DNA of 25,360 bases from Candidatus Sulfotelmatobacter sp. (GTDB lineage: Bacteria; Eisenbacteria; RBG-16-71-46): assembly GCA_035498555.1 (NCBI GenBank), contig DATKAB010000127.1:1-25360 (forward strand), given 5' to 3'. Shown one piece after another: positions 2,544 through 12,551 of the stretch. Below the pieces are notes generated by a model. The model made no database searches, was not told where the DNA came from, and was given only the letters and a program-made list of their open reading frames with translations. The position numbers and the translations under genes are program-made. Each line of letters begins with the position of its first letter. The first letter of the stretch is position 1.

Positions 2544-4007
2544 TTACTCCAAATTCATCCAGACGCTCTTCACCTGCGTCACGTCGCGCAACGAGTCGGG
2601 GCCGAGATCGCGCCCGAATCCGGATTGCTTGAAACCCCCGAAAGGCATGCCGGGATCATAGAAATTGTAGAGATTCACCCACACCGTGCCGGCGTTGATC
2701 CGCCGCGCCACCTGGTGGGCCTTCTTCACGTCGCGGGTCCACACGCCGGAAGCGAGCCCGAACTCCACGTCGTTGCCCTTCTGGACCGCGTCGTCGACGT
2801 CGTCGAACGCGATCACCGCCAGCACCGGGCCGAAGATCTCCTCCTGCGCGACACGCATGGAGTTCTCGACGTGGTCGAGCACCGTTGCCTGCACGAACGC
2901 GCCCTTGCCGTTCACCGGCTGGCGCTCTCCGCCGGCGACCAGCTTCGCGCCTTCCTGGACCCCGATCTTCACGTAGTCGAGCACGCGATTCATCTGCTTC
3001 GCGCTGACCAGCGAGCCCAGCCGCGTCTTGGGGTCGAGCGGATCGGCCGGCACCAGCTTCCTCGCGCGCTCGGTCAGCTTCGCCACGAACTCGTCGCGGA
3101 TCGAGCGCTCGACCAGCACGCGGGAACCGGCGGCGCAGACTTCGCCCTTGCCGTAGAAGATGCCGGTGGTGGCGCCGCGCACCGCAGCCTCGAGATCGGC
3201 GTCGGCGAACACGATGTTGGGCGACTTGCCGCCCAGCTCGAGCGTGAGCTTCTTCACGCTCTCGGCGCCTTCCCGCATGATCAGCTTGCCGACCTCGGTC
3301 GACCCGGTGAACGAGATCTTGTCCACGCCCGCATGCCGCACCAGCGCCATGCCGACCACGCTGCCCGGACCGGGCACCACGTTGAGCACGCCCGGCGGCA
3401 GGCCGGCCTCGAGCGCCAGCTGGCCGATGCGGATCGCGGTGAGCGGCGTTTCGGCGGCCGGCTTCAGCACCACGCAGTTGCCGGCGGCCAGCGCGGGCGC
3501 GCACTTCCACCCCACCATGATCATCGGGAAGTTCCACGGAATGATCGCGCCGATCACGCCGATCGGTTCGCGCAGCGTGTAGGTGAACCAGCTCGGGCTC
3601 ACCGGAATGGTGTCACCGTAGAGCTTGGTGGCCCAGCCGGCGAAGTAGTGGAAGCAGCTCGCCACCATCGGCACGTCGATCTGGCGCGATTCGAAGATCG
3701 GCTTGCCGTTGTCGAGCGTTTCGAGCCGCGCGATCTCGTCGGCGTGCTCGAGGATCAGATCGCCGAGCTTCCACAGGATGCGCTGGCGTTCCGCCGGCCG
3801 CATGCGCGGCCAGGGTCCGCTCTCGAACGCCGCGCGGGCGGCGCGCACCGCGCGCTCGACATCCTCGATGCCGGCTTCCGCCACGGTGGTGATCACTTCC
3901 TCCGTGGCGGGATTGGTGGTGGTGAAGGTGCGGCCGGAGGCGGCGTCCACCGCTTCGCCGTTGATGATCAGTCGCGCGGGGGCCACCGGCGCGAGCGTGT
4001 CGGTCAT
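2544..4007 (-). CDS. NAD(P)-dependent aldehyde dehydrogenase
   Basis: Track ORF, 487 aa. ALDH hallmarks: ELGGKSP, catalytic Cys in GKGEVCAAGSR, and FGGFKQSGFGR. RBS GGAG sits about 8 nt upstream of the ATG at 4007. Confidence 0.93.
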   Translation of the reverse strand: MTDTLAPVAPARLIINGEAVDAASGRTFTTTNPATEEVITTVAEAGIEDVERAVRAARAAFESGPWPRMRPAERQRILWKLGDLILEHADEIARLETLDNGKPIFESRQIDVPMVASCFHYFAGWATKLYGDTIPVSPSWFTYTLREPIGVIGAIIPWNFPMIMVGWKCAPALAAGNCVVLKPAAETPLTAIRIGQLALEAGLPPGVLNVVPGPGSVVGMALVRHAGVDKISFTGSTEVGKLIMREGAESVKKLTLELGGKSPNIVFADADLEAAVRGATTGIFYGKGEVCAAGSRVLVERSIRDEFVAKLTERARKLVPADPLDPKTRLGSLVSAKQMNRVLDYVKIGVQEGAKLVAGGERQPVNGKGAFVQATVLDHVENSMRVAQEEIFGPVLAVIAFDDVDDAVQKGNDVEFGLASGVWTRDVKKAHQVARRINAGTVWVNLYNFYDPGMPFGGFKQSGFGRDLGPDSLRDVTQVKSVWMNLE

Positions 4008-4049
4008 GATTTTTTTCTCCAGAGAATCAAAGGCCTAAGACAGTCAAAC

Positions 4050-4568
4050 CTAAATCTTATTCGCGGCGCGCCAGCGCCGAATCGCGGCCGCGTGATGGCG
4101 ATCGTGCGCGTGCAGCGCTTCCATCATCCAGCCAAATGGATGCTCCGGTTGCCAGATCGTGGACGGCTCCTCGGGAACCGTGGCCAGCCGTTCCTGCAGC
4201 TCGCGGCGCGTGGCGTCGAGCAGCCCCAGCGCCTGCTCCCAACTGTGCGAGCGCAGCTCGCCGACTTCGCGCGCGTTGAGCTGCGCGTACTCCGGCGCCT
4301 CGTGGCCGCGCCAGCTCGGCTGCGCGCCGCTGATCGCCGCCTCCATCTCGCGCACCCGGGCGCGATCGCGCGCCACCAGATGGAGCACGGTCTCGCGCGC
4401 GTTCCACTTCCCCTGCCCCATCGGCCGTTCCGCGTCGCGTGGGGTGAGGCCGGCGATCGCGTCGAGCAGCTCGGCGCGCGCCGTGGCCAGCGCCGAGATC
4501 ACTCGCGCGCGCGTCCAGGGCTCGGCGGCGGGCTCACCGGCGGCGCGTGCGGCGATGTCGGACGGCAT
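4050..4568 (-). CDS. DinB-superfamily (DinB_2/YfiT-like) metal-dependent protein
   Basis: Track ORF, 172 aa. His-containing helices (HLVARD ... HAHDRHHAAAIRRW) are typical of the DinB/YfiT four-helix-bundle family. RBS GAGGAGG sits 5 nt upstream of the ATG. It is paralogous to the C-terminal domain of the next gene upstream. Confidence 0.65.
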   Translation of the reverse strand: MPSDIAARAAGEPAAEPWTRARVISALATARAELLDAIAGLTPRDAERPMGQGKWNARETVLHLVARDRARVREMEAAISGAQPSWRGHEAPEYAQLNAREVGELRSHSWEQALGLLDATRRELQERLATVPEEPSTIWQPEHPFGWMMEALHAHDRHHAAAIRRWRAANKI

Positions 4569-8782: not shown

Positions 8783-8914
8783 GGCCCGCCCTTCCTCCCG
8801 CGCCACCCCCAGACTCTTGCGCATGCTCGCTCGGCCCTCGATACTCATCGCATCCCGAGCGACGCCCGCGGCGGAACGTTGCCGCGGTCACCGCTATTCG
8901 CAGGAGGAAGTGCC

Positions 8915-9436
8915 ATGATGACGAAGTCGAATCTGGACATGATCTGGGACCACATCCGGATCCTCAACGGCATCGCCGTCCGCTGTGTCGCGAACCTGCC
9001 CGCCGACAAGCTCGACGCGCATCCGATTCCAAGGATGCGCACGCCGAAGGAGCTGGTGGTCCACATGTACACGAGCTCGATGCGCTCGATGATGGAAGGG
9101 CTGCTGAGCGGCAACTACCAGGAGTACGACGAGAAATCCGCGTGCGAACGCATCCAGACCAAGGACGATCTGCTTCGTTTCTGTGACGAGAGCTGGAAGG
9201 CCAGCGACCGCGCCGAGCGTGCGGCCACCGACGCGCATCTCGCGGGAGAGGTGAAGACTCCCTGGGGCCACGCGATGCCGGGGCCGATGTGCGTTCAAGT
9301 GGTGCGCGACGAGCTTCTGCACCATCGCGGGCAGCTCTACGCCTACCTGCGCGCGCTCGGGCAGGAGGTTCCCGACATGTACGACTACGCCAACAACGCG
9401 CCGGAATTCCGCCGCCGGGAGCCCGCGCAGGCGTAA
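8915..9436 (+). CDS. DinB-family (damage-inducible protein DinB-like) protein
   Basis: Within track ORF 8879..9436, start at ATG 8915 (MMTKSNLDMIWDHIRIL...) preceded by AGGAGGA. Conserved His positions (HMYTS ... HHRGQLYAYL) fit the DinB/YfiT family. Confidence 0.65.
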   Translation: MMTKSNLDMIWDHIRILNGIAVRCVANLPADKLDAHPIPRMRTPKELVVHMYTSSMRSMMEGLLSGNYQEYDEKSACERIQTKDDLLRFCDESWKASDRAERAATDAHLAGEVKTPWGHAMPGPMCVQVVRDELLHHRGQLYAYLRALGQEVPDMYDYANNAPEFRRREPAQA

Positions 9437-9459: not shown

Positions 9460-9502
9460 CCGAGGCCCGGGCCCATTCGCCCGGGCCTCGGCTTTTCCCC
9501 CC
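9460..9502 (+). terminator. rho-independent terminator
   Basis: Perfect 13-bp stem CCGAGGCCCGGGC / GCCCGGGCCTCGG with loop CCATTC, followed by CTTTTCCCCCC. It lies 24 nt after the DinB-family stop. Confidence 0.8.
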
Positions 9503-9531
9503 GGACTTCGCCCGAATCCTCCTGGCTCGCG

Positions 9532-9564
9532 TGACATCAGAATGATATCATAATGACATCAACG
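9532..9564. promoter_or_regulatory. three tandem 11-bp repeats TGACATCAgaa / TGATATCAtaa / TGACATCAacg (AT-rich operator/promoter)
   Basis: Read directly: gTGACATCAgaaTGATATCAtaaTGACATCAacgAGGAGGggccagATG. Each 8-mer is palindromic or near-palindromic, and the 11-bp period equals one helical turn. It sits immediately upstream of the SPFH gene's RBS. It is the most AT-rich stretch in the window. Confidence 0.6.
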
Positions 9565-9576
9565 AGGAGGGGCCAG

Positions 9577-10446
9577 ATGATTCGCGAAAAAGAAGTGAGC
9601 GCCCGGTCGGGCGGATTCATGTTCCTGGTGGTGCTGGCGCTGTTCTTCGGCTCGATCTGGGGGATCATTCACAATGCGTCGCACGGCTCGCCCCCGGGCG
9701 TGATCCTCTCGGTACTGGGGGTGGCGGTCGCGGTGCTGGGAGTGTTCGGACTCACGGTGGTCAATCCCAACCAGTCCCAGGTGGTTCAGCTGTTCGGCAG
9801 CTACAGCGGCACGCTTCACCAGCCCGGCTTCTGGTGGGTGAATCCTTTCACCACGCGGCGCAGGATCTCGGTGCGCGTCCGCAACTTCGAGAGCGCCAAG
9901 CTCAAGGTGAACGACCACGATGGCAATCCCATCGAGATCGCGGCGGTGGTGGTGTGGCGGGTGGTGGACACCGCCGAGGCGCTGTTCGAGGTCGACAATT
10001 ACGAGAACTTCGTCAAGGTCCAGACCGAGGCGGCGGTGCGCAATCTCGCCTCGACGCATCCGTACGACGCGCACGGCGATGGCCAGATGTCGCTACGCAG
10101 CAACATCCAGGAGGTGGCCGAGGACCTCAAGAAGGAGATCCAGGCCCGCCTCACCAAGGCCGGCGTGGAAGTGATCGAGGCGCGCATCAGCCACCTCGCC
10201 TACGCGCCCGAAATCGCCAGCGCCATGCTGCAGCGCCAGCAGGCGAGCGCGATCGTGGCGGCGCGCACCAAGATCGTCGAGGGCGCGGTGGGCATGGTCG
10301 AGATGGCGCTCGCGGAGCTGTCGCAGCGCCACGTCGTCGAGCTCGACGGCGAGCGGCGAGCGGCGATGGTGAGCAATCTGCTGGTGGTGCTGTGCAGCGA
10401 TCGCCACGCTCAGCCGGTCGTCAACGCCGGCACCATCTATCAATAG
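9577..10446 (+). CDS. SPFH/band-7 (stomatin/prohibitin-like) membrane protein
   Basis: Within track ORF 9553..10446, start at ATG 9577 (MIREKEV...) with GAGGAGG upstream. Two N-terminal TM helices, then an SPFH domain ([15 protein letters not shown]...; [21 protein letters not shown]; coiled-coil C-terminal part). Confidence 0.82.
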
Positions 10447-10467: not shown

Positions 10468-10656
10468 GTGGCGGACCGGAAGCCCTTCCTGCTGAGGCTG
10501 GACCCCGCGGTGCTCGAAGCCCTGCAGCGCTGGGCCAACGATGATCTGCGGAGTCTCAACGGACAGATCGAATTCCTGTTGCGGCGCGCGCTCGCCGACA
10601 CCGGACGCGCGCCGCGTACTCCCGGCGAAAAATTGCAACGAAAGCCACGCTCATGA
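10468..10656 (+). CDS. Arc/MetJ-type ribbon-helix-helix DNA-binding protein
   Basis: Track ORF, 62 aa, GTG start. KPFLLRLDPAVLEALQRWANDDLRSLNGQIEFLLRRAL matches the Arc-family RHH pattern (beta-strand then two helices). GGAG/GAGG lie 5-10 nt upstream. Confidence 0.65.
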   Translation: MADRKPFLLRLDPAVLEALQRWANDDLRSLNGQIEFLLRRALADTGRAPRTPGEKLQRKPRS

Positions 10657-11195
10657 TCTCCGACGATTCGCAGAATCCCTCGCCCGCCGACTTCGCCGCC
10701 GTGGACTGGCGTCGGGTCGATACCCTCCAGTGGACGCAGCCGCGTCGGTTCGTGCGGCGCTGGGAGTTGAACGACGGCGATCAGCCGGTTGCCGCACTTC
10801 GCTGGCGCGGGCCGTGGCGGCCGGGCTTCGACGCGGTGACGCGCGGCGGGGCGTGGCAAATCGACAGGAGTTTCTGGCTCGGACTGGACCTCCGACGGCC
10901 GGGAGAAGAAGAGCCCGAGATCCGCGTGCGCGCCAGCTGGCTCGGCCGAGCGCGAATCGAGCGATCCCAGGGCGAGGCCGTCCGCTGGCGGAGGGACGGC
11001 TGGGGCTTCAGCCGGCGCCGCATCGAGACGGCCGAAGGAACTCCGCTGATCCATTTCCAGATGGACCCCGGGTTCTTCCGCCACGACGGCCAGATCGCGA
11101 TCGAGTCGGAAGCGCGCTCGCTCCCCGATCTCGAGCCCCTCATTCTGGTGGGCTGGGGGCTGCTGGTCTCGGCTCACCGCCAGCACGCGCACTAG
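10653..11195 (+). CDS. hypothetical protein (Trp/Arg-rich, internal repeat), translationally coupled to the RHH gene
   Basis: Track ORF, 180 aa. Its ATG overlaps the RHH TGA (ATGA). I found no recognisable family. There is a possible internal repeat: AALRWRGPWRPGF...GGAWQI versus AVRWRRDGWGFSRRRIETAEGTPLI. Confidence 0.55.
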   Translation: MISDDSQNPSPADFAAVDWRRVDTLQWTQPRRFVRRWELNDGDQPVAALRWRGPWRPGFDAVTRGGAWQIDRSFWLGLDLRRPGEEEPEIRVRASWLGRARIERSQGEAVRWRRDGWGFSRRRIETAEGTPLIHFQMDPGFFRHDGQIAIESEARSLPDLEPLILVGWGLLVSAHRQHAH

Positions 11196-11414: not shown

Positions 11415-11819
11415 ATGTCTCGTAGGACGGTTCTCGCGCTCCCGGTCGCGGTGGGCTTGATCGCCTTCGCGCTCTTTGCGCAATCCGGCTGCTCCAAGAG
11501 CAGCCCGACTTCGCCATACGGCGGCGGCGGAGGCGGTGGCGGCGGTGGTGGCGGCACGGTGGAGCCATTCTCCTCGGGGAATTTCACCTCGAGCAATGCG
11601 CAAGGGTTCGTGCATACCTTCACCAACACCGGCAGCTTCGGCTACACCTGCACAATCCACAACATGCCCGGCACGATCAACGTCGCGGCCAGCGGGCCGG
11701 ACTCGGTGACGGTCGACATCGTCAACTTCGCCTTCTCGCCGAATCCCGCGTCGGTGAAGACCGGAGGCTACGTGCACTGGATCAACACCGTGGCCACCGC
11801 GCACAACGTGACGCGATAG
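11415..11819 (+). CDS. cupredoxin-like (amicyanin/plastocyanin-type) lipoprotein with Gly13 linker; apparently circularly permuted
   Basis: Track ORF, 134 aa. Signal peptide plus lipobox-like FAQSGC, then GGGGGGGGGGGGG. Next comes GSFGYTCTIHNMPGTINV, resembling the C-terminal Cys-His-Met ligand loop of cupredoxins (compare GTYDYHCTPHPFM). After that, FSPNPASVKTGGYVHWINTVATAHNV resembles the N-terminal beta2-beta4 region with the first His ligand (compare FEPAELTVKVGDTVTWINREAMPHNV). AAGGAAGGAAAC precedes the ATG. Confidence 0.7.
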   Translation: MSRRTVLALPVAVGLIAFALFAQSGCSKSSPTSPYGGGGGGGGGGGGTVEPFSSGNFTSSNAQGFVHTFTNTGSFGYTCTIHNMPGTINVAASGPDSVTVDIVNFAFSPNPASVKTGGYVHWINTVATAHNVTR

Positions 11820-11941: not shown

Positions 11942-11980
11942 CGGAAATACCACGCAATTCCCGGACATTTCCGCGGAAAT
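11942..11980. promoter_or_regulatory. 14-bp perfect palindrome ATTTCCGCGGAAAT plus upstream half-site CGGAAAT
   Basis: Read directly: CGGAAAT-N19-ATTTCCGCGGAAAT, about 100-140 nt upstream of the 12081 ATG. The sequence is AT-containing in a GC-rich background. It is a candidate transcription-factor operator. Confidence 0.45.
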
Positions 11981-12080
11981 CGCGGCCCTGCCGAAGGTTC
12001 GCGAATCGGCCTGCCGGTGGCACGCGGACTGCTCAAGTGATCCCACGAACCCTGTCGCCCGCAGTCACGAGGAGGACGCC

Positions 12081-12551
12081 ATGAAGACCCTGAACGAACA
12101 TCGCCGCGTGATCTCGACGCTGATGATGAGTCTGGTCGCGGCCACACTTCTCGCGCAGACCGCGAGTGCGGGCAACGCGTGGGGACACTCGAAGCGCTGG
12201 AAGCCCGGCCCGCCGGCGCGCGAGATCGGCTGGGTCGCACCGCCCGCGCCCGTGTACGTGGTGCATCACTCCGACGCCGGCCCGATCTTCGCCGGACTGG
12301 TGGGCGGGCTGATCCTCGGCGCGGCGCTCGCCAACGCACACCCGGCGGTGCACGTCCAGTATTCGTACTGGGATCCGTACTGCCAGGAGAGCTTCTCGTC
12401 GCTCGCGGCCTACGACGCGCACTTGCGATACCACCATCATCCGCAGTTCGTGCGCGTGATCGACGCGTCGAATGGACGCTGCGTGCGGGAGCTGAGCTGG
12501 AGCGATCGCGGCTGGCAGCCGTGCGAGCACAGCGGCGAGTGGCACGACTAG
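12081..12551 (+). CDS. small secreted His/Cys-rich protein of unknown function
   Basis: Within track ORF 11874..12551, start at ATG 12081 (MKTLNEHRRVISTLMMSLVAATLLAQTASA...) with GAGGAGG 5 nt upstream. Signal peptide, then HHSD, HPAVHVQY, HLRYHHHPQF and paired Cys (PYCQ, GRCV, QPCEH). Confidence 0.6.
   Translation: MKTLNEHRRVISTLMMSLVAATLLAQTASAGNAWGHSKRWKPGPPAREIGWVAPPAPVYVVHHSDAGPIFAGLVGGLILGAALANAHPAVHVQYSYWDPYCQESFSSLAAYDAHLRYHHHPQFVRVIDASNGRCVRELSWSDRGWQPCEHSGEWHD

Follow-up and report, generated by a model that had tools for sequence, protein, structure and literature searches.

In the 25,360-nucleotide stretch of Candidatus Sulfotelmatobacter sp. DNA analysed here (hereafter the window), an operon that begins with the gene for an SPFH/Band 7 membrane protein and continues with the gene for a 62-amino-acid ribbon-helix-helix (RHH) protein is preceded by three 8-bp boxes spaced at exactly 11 bp. 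Comparison of the homologous loci indicates that this array is kept before the same pair of SPFH and RHH genes in bacteria of more than ten phyla. The most likely explanation, in our view, is that the array is an operator merged with the operon's promoter, where the operon's own RHH protein would bind and repress transcription of the SPFH and RHH genes and, where it is present, of a third gene (ORF3). The conservation of the array is described first, followed by its association with the RHH gene and its position relative to the promoter; the alternatives are then weighed together.

Conservation of the box array

The three boxes of the window are TGACATCA at positions 9532-9539 (box 1, left), TGATATCA at 9543-9550 (box 2, central) and TGACATCA once more at 9554-9561 (box 3, right), none of them having a strand; the region 9531-9579 as a whole reads gTGACATCAgaaTGATATCAtaaTGACATCAacgAGGAGGggccagATG. 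The central box is a perfect palindrome, and TGACATCA differs from the family consensus, TGATATCA, at one base. Tandem Repeats Finder reports the same interval (9532-9561, period 11, 2.7 copies, score 46). The pattern TGAYATCA has 4 strand-wise matches in the 25,360 bp, which amount to 3 sites, where 0.44 would be expected, and none of 100 shuffled sequences reached 4; by our own arithmetic, from base composition, the chance of three phased copies arising in 25 kb is approximately 1e-11. An initial annotation of this DNA had described three near-palindromic 8-mers at exact 11-bp spacing, in a repeat interval ending 12 nt before the SPFH start codon, and both statements are borne out, the ATG being at 9577. 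The search for further TGAYATCA copies found none elsewhere in the window, and copies with one mismatch are not enriched there (8 against 13.9 expected); near SPFH operons, too, the array is single-copy. The same region had been called the most AT-rich stretch of the window. This is correct at a scale of about 30 nt, where 9532-9564 holds the most AT-rich 30-mer (21/30 A+T, with a tie at 33 nt), but not at 40-50 nt, where 4006-4060 is richer (33/50); the latter stretch is bounded by open reading frames (ORFs) with ends or starts near 4007 and 4050.

Homologous loci were retrieved by SPFH alignment from contigs representing one genome per species. The 80 SPFH loci obtained, 422,146 bp in total, span Eisenbacteria, several classes of Acidobacteriota, Gemmatimonadota, Chloroflexota, Planctomycetota, Ignavibacteria, Acidimicrobiia, and Gamma- and Alphaproteobacteria. 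An RHH homologue lies downstream of the SPFH gene in 79 of the 80, and TGATATCA-like boxes lie upstream of it in nearly all of them. The exact sequence TGATATCA occurs 73 times in these 422,146 bp, and 72 of the copies are within 100 nt upstream of an SPFH start, leaving a single stray copy outside the SPFH upstream regions; counted by locus, 70 of the 79 whose upstream sequence was long enough have the exact box before the SPFH gene. The spacing is equally regular. When up to 2 mismatches are allowed, 102 pairs of boxes are 11 bp apart and 37 are 22 bp apart, while every other distance accounts for at most 9 pairs; at 11 bp a shuffled sequence yields 0.17 pairs. At the same threshold three in-register boxes are present in 29 loci, two adjacent boxes in 36 and one box in 8. 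In a matrix anchored on the central box of the 79 loci, this box carries 1.25-1.93 bits per position and the boxes at -11 and +11 mostly 0.8-1.3, a difference which is somewhat inflated because the anchoring tends to place the best box at the centre.

The contrast between the boxes and their surroundings is visible among close relatives of the window (L210-L213; 76-91% SPFH identity), in which the intergenic DNA is otherwise unalignable. The invariant parts are TGACATCA-N3-TGATATCA-N3-(T/C)GACATCAAC and the Shine-Dalgarno sequence, and the distance between these two elements varies by 16-22 nt. The array is a deep phylogenetic footprint of textbook kind. The same layout is found in database records of cultured species: Bacillus thuringiensis has TGATATAAaagTGATATCAtttTTATATCAggagg, Deinococcus wulumuqiensis has ttcaaagTGATATCActttgaa, preceded by TTGACT, and Qipengyuania citrea has three boxes upstream of SPFH; two boxes are found in Prevotella nigrescens and Parabacteroides distasonis, and one in Nonomuraea and Bosea. 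Taken together, the 11-bp phasing, the footprint across phyla and the spacing peaks at 11 and 22 bp support, in silico, the helical-turn-phased operator architecture that had been proposed for these repeats.

The RHH protein and its association with the array

The RHH gene (10468-10656, + strand, GTG start) is the second gene of the operon and is classed as Arc-like from the comparison of its family profile with Arc. Among 46 homologues, 41 match Pfam RHH_5 and 7 match Arc at E < 0.01. When compared with the Protein Data Bank (PDB), the family profile finds structures of P22 Arc (pArc, E = 6.5e-4; Arc, E = 0.037), and hhalign aligns the family with Arc at E = 8e-5 and a probability of 61%; a PDB search with the single sequence returned only noise, so that the family profile was required. 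Four residues, R10, R28, S29 and N31, are invariant across 93 RHH sequences from many phyla. R10 aligns with R13 of Arc, and R28-S29-x-N31 with R31-S32-x-N34 of Arc at the start of helix B. In Arc, an arginine of the N-terminal strand contacts bases, and helix B begins with a motif that contacts phosphate; the invariant R10 and RSxN of the 62-amino-acid protein make it look like a DNA binder. Its orthologues (54-66 amino acids; L204, L205, L206 and others) are named inconsistently in RefSeq, where they appear as ‘hypothetical protein’, ‘toxin-antitoxin system HicB family antitoxin’ or ‘Arc family DNA-binding protein’, and in Bosea and Nonomuraea they are unannotated.

The array and the RHH gene occur together. 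Four SPFH homologues that have no RHH gene, those of L080, Deinococcus proteolyticus, D. radiophilus and Pseudomonas amygdali, have no boxes either, and in D. wulumuqiensis both the RHH gene and the box are present. The presence of an RHH gene in the same operon had been taken to suggest autoregulation, and this proposal is supported in silico by the co-occurrence and by the boxless state of the RHH-less SPFH loci. A separate observation concerns D. proteolyticus pDEIPR01 (L231:2221), in which a lone TGATATCT is found 25 nt past the SPFH stop codon, the usual site of the RHH start, and is followed by an IS630 transposase; it may be the remnant of a rearranged operon.

Further evidence comes from loci of a different kind. 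A metagenome scan with a clade-specific 23-base pattern gave 17 loci, 11 of them prokaryotic. Nine of the 17 are SPFH operons: eight were recognised by SPFH tblastn, including the window's own sequence (L230), and the ninth (L226), which ends at a contig edge, was counted because its flank is common with that of L221. Two more are one and the same locus (L224 = L215), where a stand-alone RHH gene is preceded, at 5 bp, by an identical three-box array. In L224 the array, TGACATCA-N3-TGATATCA-N3-TGACATCA, and the gene (11996-12292) fall within the region 11961-12292. The encoded protein of 98 amino acids scores above the Pfam thresholds for the Arc and HicB RHH domains and carries a C-terminal SEC-C zinc motif. 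It is 36% identical to the window RHH family over 45 residues (E = 1.7e-4), and the RHH plus SEC-C proteins, a family of approximately 33 clusters, have the L-R-[LI] strand and the RSLN motif in common with the window RHH. Homologues of the L224 protein at 53-58% identity are accompanied by in-phase three-box arrays in L234, L236 and L237 and by one box in L235; homologues at 40-42% identity, with LSLN and not RSLN, have no boxes. In all four of the loci with three boxes (L224, L234, L236 and L237) the array is fused to TTGACA and ends 0-6 nt before the start codon. The neighbourhoods of the RHH plus SEC-C genes are mobile-element-like, with a zeta-toxin-like gene nearby in L224, and have no SPFH gene. 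The sole feature common to the SPFH and RHH-SEC-C contexts is an RHH of the window type.

The RHH-SEC-C loci also have a second block, GGGCTTGTCGNACAGGTAACAA (GGTCTTGCCAAACAGGTAACAA in L224), approximately 75-95 nt upstream of the RHH-SEC-C start in 5 of 5 cases (L224 and L234-L237). This block, located before the boxes, may mark where an upstream gene ends or be a mobile-element site.

Promoter, start codon and neighbouring genes

The nearest gene upstream of the operon belongs to the DinB family (8912-9436; Pfam). It is followed at 9460-9496 (+ strand) by a hairpin with a 13-bp perfect G+C stem and then CUUUU, which folds at -37.1 kcal/mol (z = -3.6); none of 200 shuffled sequences folds equally well. 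A simple terminator scan missed this hairpin because the T run is short. It is the probable intrinsic terminator of the DinB-family gene. The SPFH transcription unit would then have its 5' limit here, and the operon must accordingly be served by a promoter of its own within roughly 9497-9576. A simple promoter scan of the window returned one site only, an implausible one reaching into coding sequence, and the promoter was therefore assigned from the cross-species consensus. This predicts an extended -10, TGaTATCAT, at 9543-9551 (+ strand), with the TG at 9543-9544 and the hexamer TATCAT at 9546-9551. TTGACA, with up to 1 mismatch, is found upstream in 42 of the 79 loci, and in 25 of these 42 the spacer to the TATCAN of the central box is 16-18 bp. 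Base +8 of the central box is T in 46 of the 79 loci, and the layout in B. thuringiensis is TTGCTT-N18-TATCAT, with TG in the correct place.

On this assignment the array would overlap a sigma-70-type promoter, with box 1 in the spacer, box 2, the best-conserved element, over the predicted extended -10, and box 3 covering the region where transcription is predicted to start. The initial annotation had expected the boxes to overlap the promoter of the operon, and the central box, which reads as an extended -10 correctly spaced from TTGACA-like hexamers, supports this in silico. Two observations qualify the relationship. The distance from the -35 to the boxes varies by several bp between loci while the distance from box to box is constant, and in Bacteroidota the boxes are retained just downstream of a TAnnTTTG element; the boxes are therefore separate from the promoter hexamers and not simply a -10. 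The distance from the central box to the ATG ranges from 24 to 95 nt across loci.

The Shine-Dalgarno sequence of the SPFH gene, AGGAGG (9565-9570, + strand), starts 3 nt after the end of box 3 and ends 6 nt before the ATG at 9577; GGAGG before the ATG is kept in relatives. The start at 9577, which gives a protein of 289 amino acids beginning MIREKE, agrees with all homologues. An in-frame ATG at 9553, inside box 3, opens an ORF of 297 amino acids that gene callers could choose. The homologues and the position of the Shine-Dalgarno sequence indicate that 9577 is the start and that the ATG at 9553 is probably not used, making it a start-codon trap for annotation.

The SPFH gene itself (9577-10446, + strand) is the first of the operon and matches Pfam Band_7 at E = 6e-31. 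Its product is 100% identical to a protein from a metagenome-assembled genome, named ‘SPFH domain-containing protein’ and labelled Candidatus Sulfotelmatobacter; homologues of the 289-residue protein are 66-91% identical, and the nearest relatives are from Eisenbacteria and Acidobacteriota. The third gene, ORF3 (10653-11195, + strand, 180 amino acids), overlaps the stop codon of the RHH gene by 4 nt (ATGA) and has no match in Pfam, NCBIfam or PADLOC. Its length is kept at 178-180 amino acids in L210-L213, and tblastn also finds it in L216 and L229, while it is present in none of the 80 wider SPFH loci; ORF3 was therefore rejected as a conserved third component, being confined to the window's own clade. 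An anti-phage defence system was likewise rejected, since PADLOC had no match for SPFH, RHH or ORF3, as was a type II toxin-antitoxin module, since the partner of the RHH protein is an SPFH membrane protein and not HicA or a member of another known toxin family. Further downstream, at 11415-11819 (+ strand), there is a small secreted or lipoprotein-like cupredoxin (Pfam Copper-bind) with a run of approximately 11 glycines encoded by a (CGG)12-type repeat at 11519-11555; a similar gene lies downstream of the operon in L211.

Interpretation of the array

We consider it likely that the array is a promoter-merged operator through which the RHH protein represses its own operon, and we infer RHH binding, its stoichiometry and cooperativity, the promoter assignment and the sign of the regulation from sequence comparisons. 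Each 8-bp palindrome or pseudopalindrome would be the site for one dimer of the 62-amino-acid protein, with the dyad at GAT|ATC. Because the centre-to-centre spacing is 11 bp, three dimers would lie on one face of the helix and could bind cooperatively; the perfect central box probably nucleates this binding, and the imperfect TGACATCA boxes would fill afterwards. The occupied operator would cover the extended -10 and the start site and so keep RNA polymerase out, which would result in negative autoregulation of SPFH, RHH and, in the clade of the window, ORF3. A link between this regulation and the state of the membrane, as sensed by the SPFH protein, is speculation.

Several observations weigh against this interpretation. 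The 62-amino-acid protein scores 22.2 bits (E = 1e-4) on Pfam RHH_5, for which the gathering score is 26. Its AlphaFold2 monomer model (confidence, pLDDT, 81) has a short helix at 6-10 and a long helix at 13-44 and no N-terminal strand, and a Foldseek search of the PDB with this model found no match. The absence of the strand is expected, in that a monomer model cannot form the inter-subunit sheet of an obligate intertwined dimer; the RHH fold therefore rests on the sequence profiles. At the promoter, the -35 position of the window (9523-9528) is TGGCTC, which is weak, and this is compatible with an extended -10 promoter. The co-occurrence argument leans on few discordant cases, namely the four RHH-less loci and the one second RHH family, because the RHH gene and the array accompany SPFH so consistently. 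Moreover, two more distant RHH homologues outside SPFH operons, on Thermus thermophilus plasmid pTthSNM1-7c (L201, 74960-75151; 59.9 bits against the family profile) and on Aminobacter pMET1 (L209; 31.7 bits), have no SPFH gene and no box within 2 kb; as a positive test these are uninformative or mildly negative. The Thermus gene forms the end of an ABC-transporter operon. Finally, unrelated systems, such as the phage iterons described below, also use arrays of GATATCA at 11-bp spacing, and the pattern alone is therefore not diagnostic.

Could the array be bound by something other than the RHH protein? An unlinked factor, for example a global stress regulator, might recognise it, the RHH protein then being, say, a partner or adaptor of the SPFH protein. 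The near-complete confounding of RHH and SPFH presence (79/80 loci) and the two boxless homologues just mentioned are in keeping with such a factor, but it would have to be conserved in all these phyla at unchanged specificity, and across more than ten phyla no further gene is a constant neighbour of the array. Since, in addition, the array recurs before a stand-alone RHH family with different neighbours and is missing from SPFH loci without an RHH gene, an unlinked factor seems unlikely. A second alternative accepts that the RHH protein binds the array and changes the outcome: it could serve as an activator or a bistable switch, or assemble a structural nucleoprotein complex of the centromere or ParR type. 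RHH proteins on 11-bp iterons can indeed bind centromeres, as in R1 ParR/parC, and one viral array precedes a ParA gene. However, boxes over the spacer, the -10 and the start site have the geometry of a repressor, there are only 1-3 of them, no partition ATPase is nearby, and the loci are chromosomal and single-copy, all of which makes a role other than repression quite improbable. It is also conceivable that no dedicated DNA-binding protein is involved and that the conservation is that of a strong extended -10 and its surroundings, given the sequence of the central box, TGnTATCAT, and its correct spacing from TTGACA-like hexamers. Promoters do not conserve their spacer or positions +1 to +10, though, and here the flanking boxes are kept at exactly +/-11 bp; the hexamer has a near-invariant C at position 4 (TATCAT), for which there is no -10 preference; and neither the retention of the boxes in Bacteroidota, with their different promoter consensus, nor the variable -35-to-box and fixed box-to-box distances would be expected of promoter elements. 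A purely promoter-based explanation is thus very improbable.

The initial annotation had allowed that the array might turn out to be a generic repeat found at many unrelated loci. As far as dispersal around SPFH operons is concerned this is not the case: the array is single in the window, it is the only one in the 422 kb of locus flanks, which cover up to 6 kb per locus, and in the 127-kb replicon of B. thuringiensis (36% G+C) the sole in-phase pair or triplet is the array before the SPFH gene. A dispersed repeat resembling repetitive extragenic palindromes or bacterial interspersed mosaic elements was rejected on these grounds. Similar arrays do, on the other hand, occur elsewhere. The three-box pattern is found in at least 120 stretches of viral contigs (L081-L200), and a single phage family accounts for more than half of the viral matches listed, its arrays being located within the coding sequence of a replication or primosomal protein (PHROG). 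These phage arrays consist of (T)GATATCA every 11 bp in 3-4 copies, followed by (AGAGAC)n, and have the appearance of origin iterons that form part of the initiator gene, an arrangement known from lambda O; among the matches listed, no SPFH or RHH homologue is near them. One example is the array at L113:2383-2407, within an ORF at 2116-2826, and a second array is often found approximately 194 bp away. In another viral contig, L164:688 (- strand), a three-box TGATATCA array is located directly upstream of the gene for a ParA-like partition ATPase (ORF 18-668), where it may be the partition operator or centromere for a small ParG/ParR-like RHH protein beyond the contig end. The remaining 6 of the 17 metagenome loci are eukaryote-like 11-bp minisatellites, (TGACATCAnnn)n, with 5-10 or more copies; they adjoin armadillo-repeat (importin-like) and chromodomain-retrotransposon genes (L214/L219, L217/L220, L218 and L227) and are apparently eukaryotic DNA which matches the bacterial operator pattern through repeat expansion.

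Patterns identical to the array occur in dozens of viral contigs, as iterons within the gene for a phage replication initiator, and beside eukaryotic genes, as long minisatellites, and a REP-like repeat, an iteron, a minisatellite or a mobile-element remnant might be suspected in the window as well. Against this, the array is single-copy in all of the bacterial DNA just described, its position relative to the SPFH start is constant, and it never exceeds approximately 3-4 copies. Replication iterons in particular were rejected, the neighbours being DinB, SPFH, RHH and ORF3 with no replication-initiator gene, and we regard a generic repeat of any of these kinds as extremely improbable. An element acting at the level of RNA, whether a structure of the 5' untranslated region, a riboswitch or a translational operator, might be suggested by the 3 nt that separate box 3 from the Shine-Dalgarno sequence in the window. 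The variation in this distance among close relatives (16-22 nt) and in that from the array centre to the ATG (24-95 nt) does not fit such an element, and given the predicted -10, box 3 alone would be transcribed. A known structured RNA was rejected, the best Rfam scores being 22 and 18 bits against gathering thresholds of 61 and 70, and the fold is no more stable than that of shuffled sequences (z = -0.23); an RNA element is barely credible. A Fur box was rejected too: the window has no match at up to 3 mismatches to GATAATGATAATCATTATC, the periodicity of which is based on 6 bp, and the conserved core here is GATATC with an 11-bp period.

The proposed autorepression by the RHH protein can be compared with several known systems. 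Phage P22 Arc (and also Mnt) is the best sequence match of the window RHH family among solved structures, and both are small RHH proteins. Arc is an RHH dimer whose operator subsites, approximately 11 bp apart, are cooperatively bound and overlap a promoter. The window array differs in having three subsites and not two, and its 8-bp palindrome, TGATATCA, is unrelated to the Arc half-sites; the window system is also chromosomal, is present in many phyla and is coupled to SPFH, with the RHH gene second in its operon, and the sequence similarity to Arc is marginal, as the hhalign probability quoted above indicates. In type II partition, R1 ParR binds the 11-bp direct repeats of parC, one RHH dimer to each, within its own autoregulated promoter; parC has ten iterons and serves as the centromere for the actin-like ATPase ParM. 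The 11-bp period is alike, whereas window-type arrays have 1-3 boxes, are chromosomal and have no partition ATPase. Each of the 2-5 tandem 8-bp palindromes (AGACGTCT) of a MetJ site is bound by one RHH dimer; the dimers cooperate with one another, and S-adenosylmethionine is needed as co-repressor. Tandem 8-bp palindromes are common to both systems, but the met boxes abut (8-bp period) and the window boxes are separated by 3 bp (11-bp period). Nearer to hand, the RHH plus SEC-C proteins represented by L224 have the same three-box array before their gene and differ by the SEC-C motif and the absence of SPFH, while the phage iterons have the same 11-bp GATATCA word and differ by lying inside the coding sequence of a replication protein. 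In the copG-repB operon of pMV158, one report describes the co-transcribed RHH protein CopG as binding cooperatively over the promoter and excluding RNA polymerase (PMC2724298). The CopG element is a 13-bp pseudosymmetric one centred on the -35, and a relationship of the window RHH family to CopG was rejected, as no profile similarity can be detected (hhalign probability 1.6%).

The mechanism proposed here, RHH autorepression through phased repeats, is therefore conventional and follows the logic of Arc, ParR, MetJ and CopG. The novelty lies in the RHH family, in how closely it is tied to a single SPFH subfamily, and in a near-invariant recognition sequence across more than ten phyla; pairs of transcription factor and operator with an unchanged recognition sequence over such a range are rare. 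Literature searches, the coverage of which was incomplete, found no paper that links SPFH to an RHH or Arc partner or describes a TGATATCA operator of this type, and neither a paper on SPFH evolution nor one on SPFH in P. aeruginosa mentions an RHH partner. A wider scheme can be imagined, in which an undescribed module of most bacterial phyla has the SPFH assembly control the availability of the RHH repressor by sequestration or release, such that membrane state feeds back on transcription, and in which the RHH/operator cassette has been co-opted by mobile elements in the form of RHH-SEC-C; as a whole we hold this scheme to be doubtful.

Bacterial SPFH proteins, which are stomatin- or flotillin-like, are widespread and poorly understood. 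For one large subfamily of them the present results supply a precise cis-element and a candidate regulator, and they suggest a likely function for thousands of small proteins labelled ‘hypothetical’, ‘HicB antitoxin’ or ‘Arc family’. Since orthologues are present in cultivable bacteria (the Bacillus cereus group, Deinococcus, Parabacteroides, Prevotella, Luteibacter and Rhodanobacter), the array also provides an entry point to the conditions that induce these SPFH operons.

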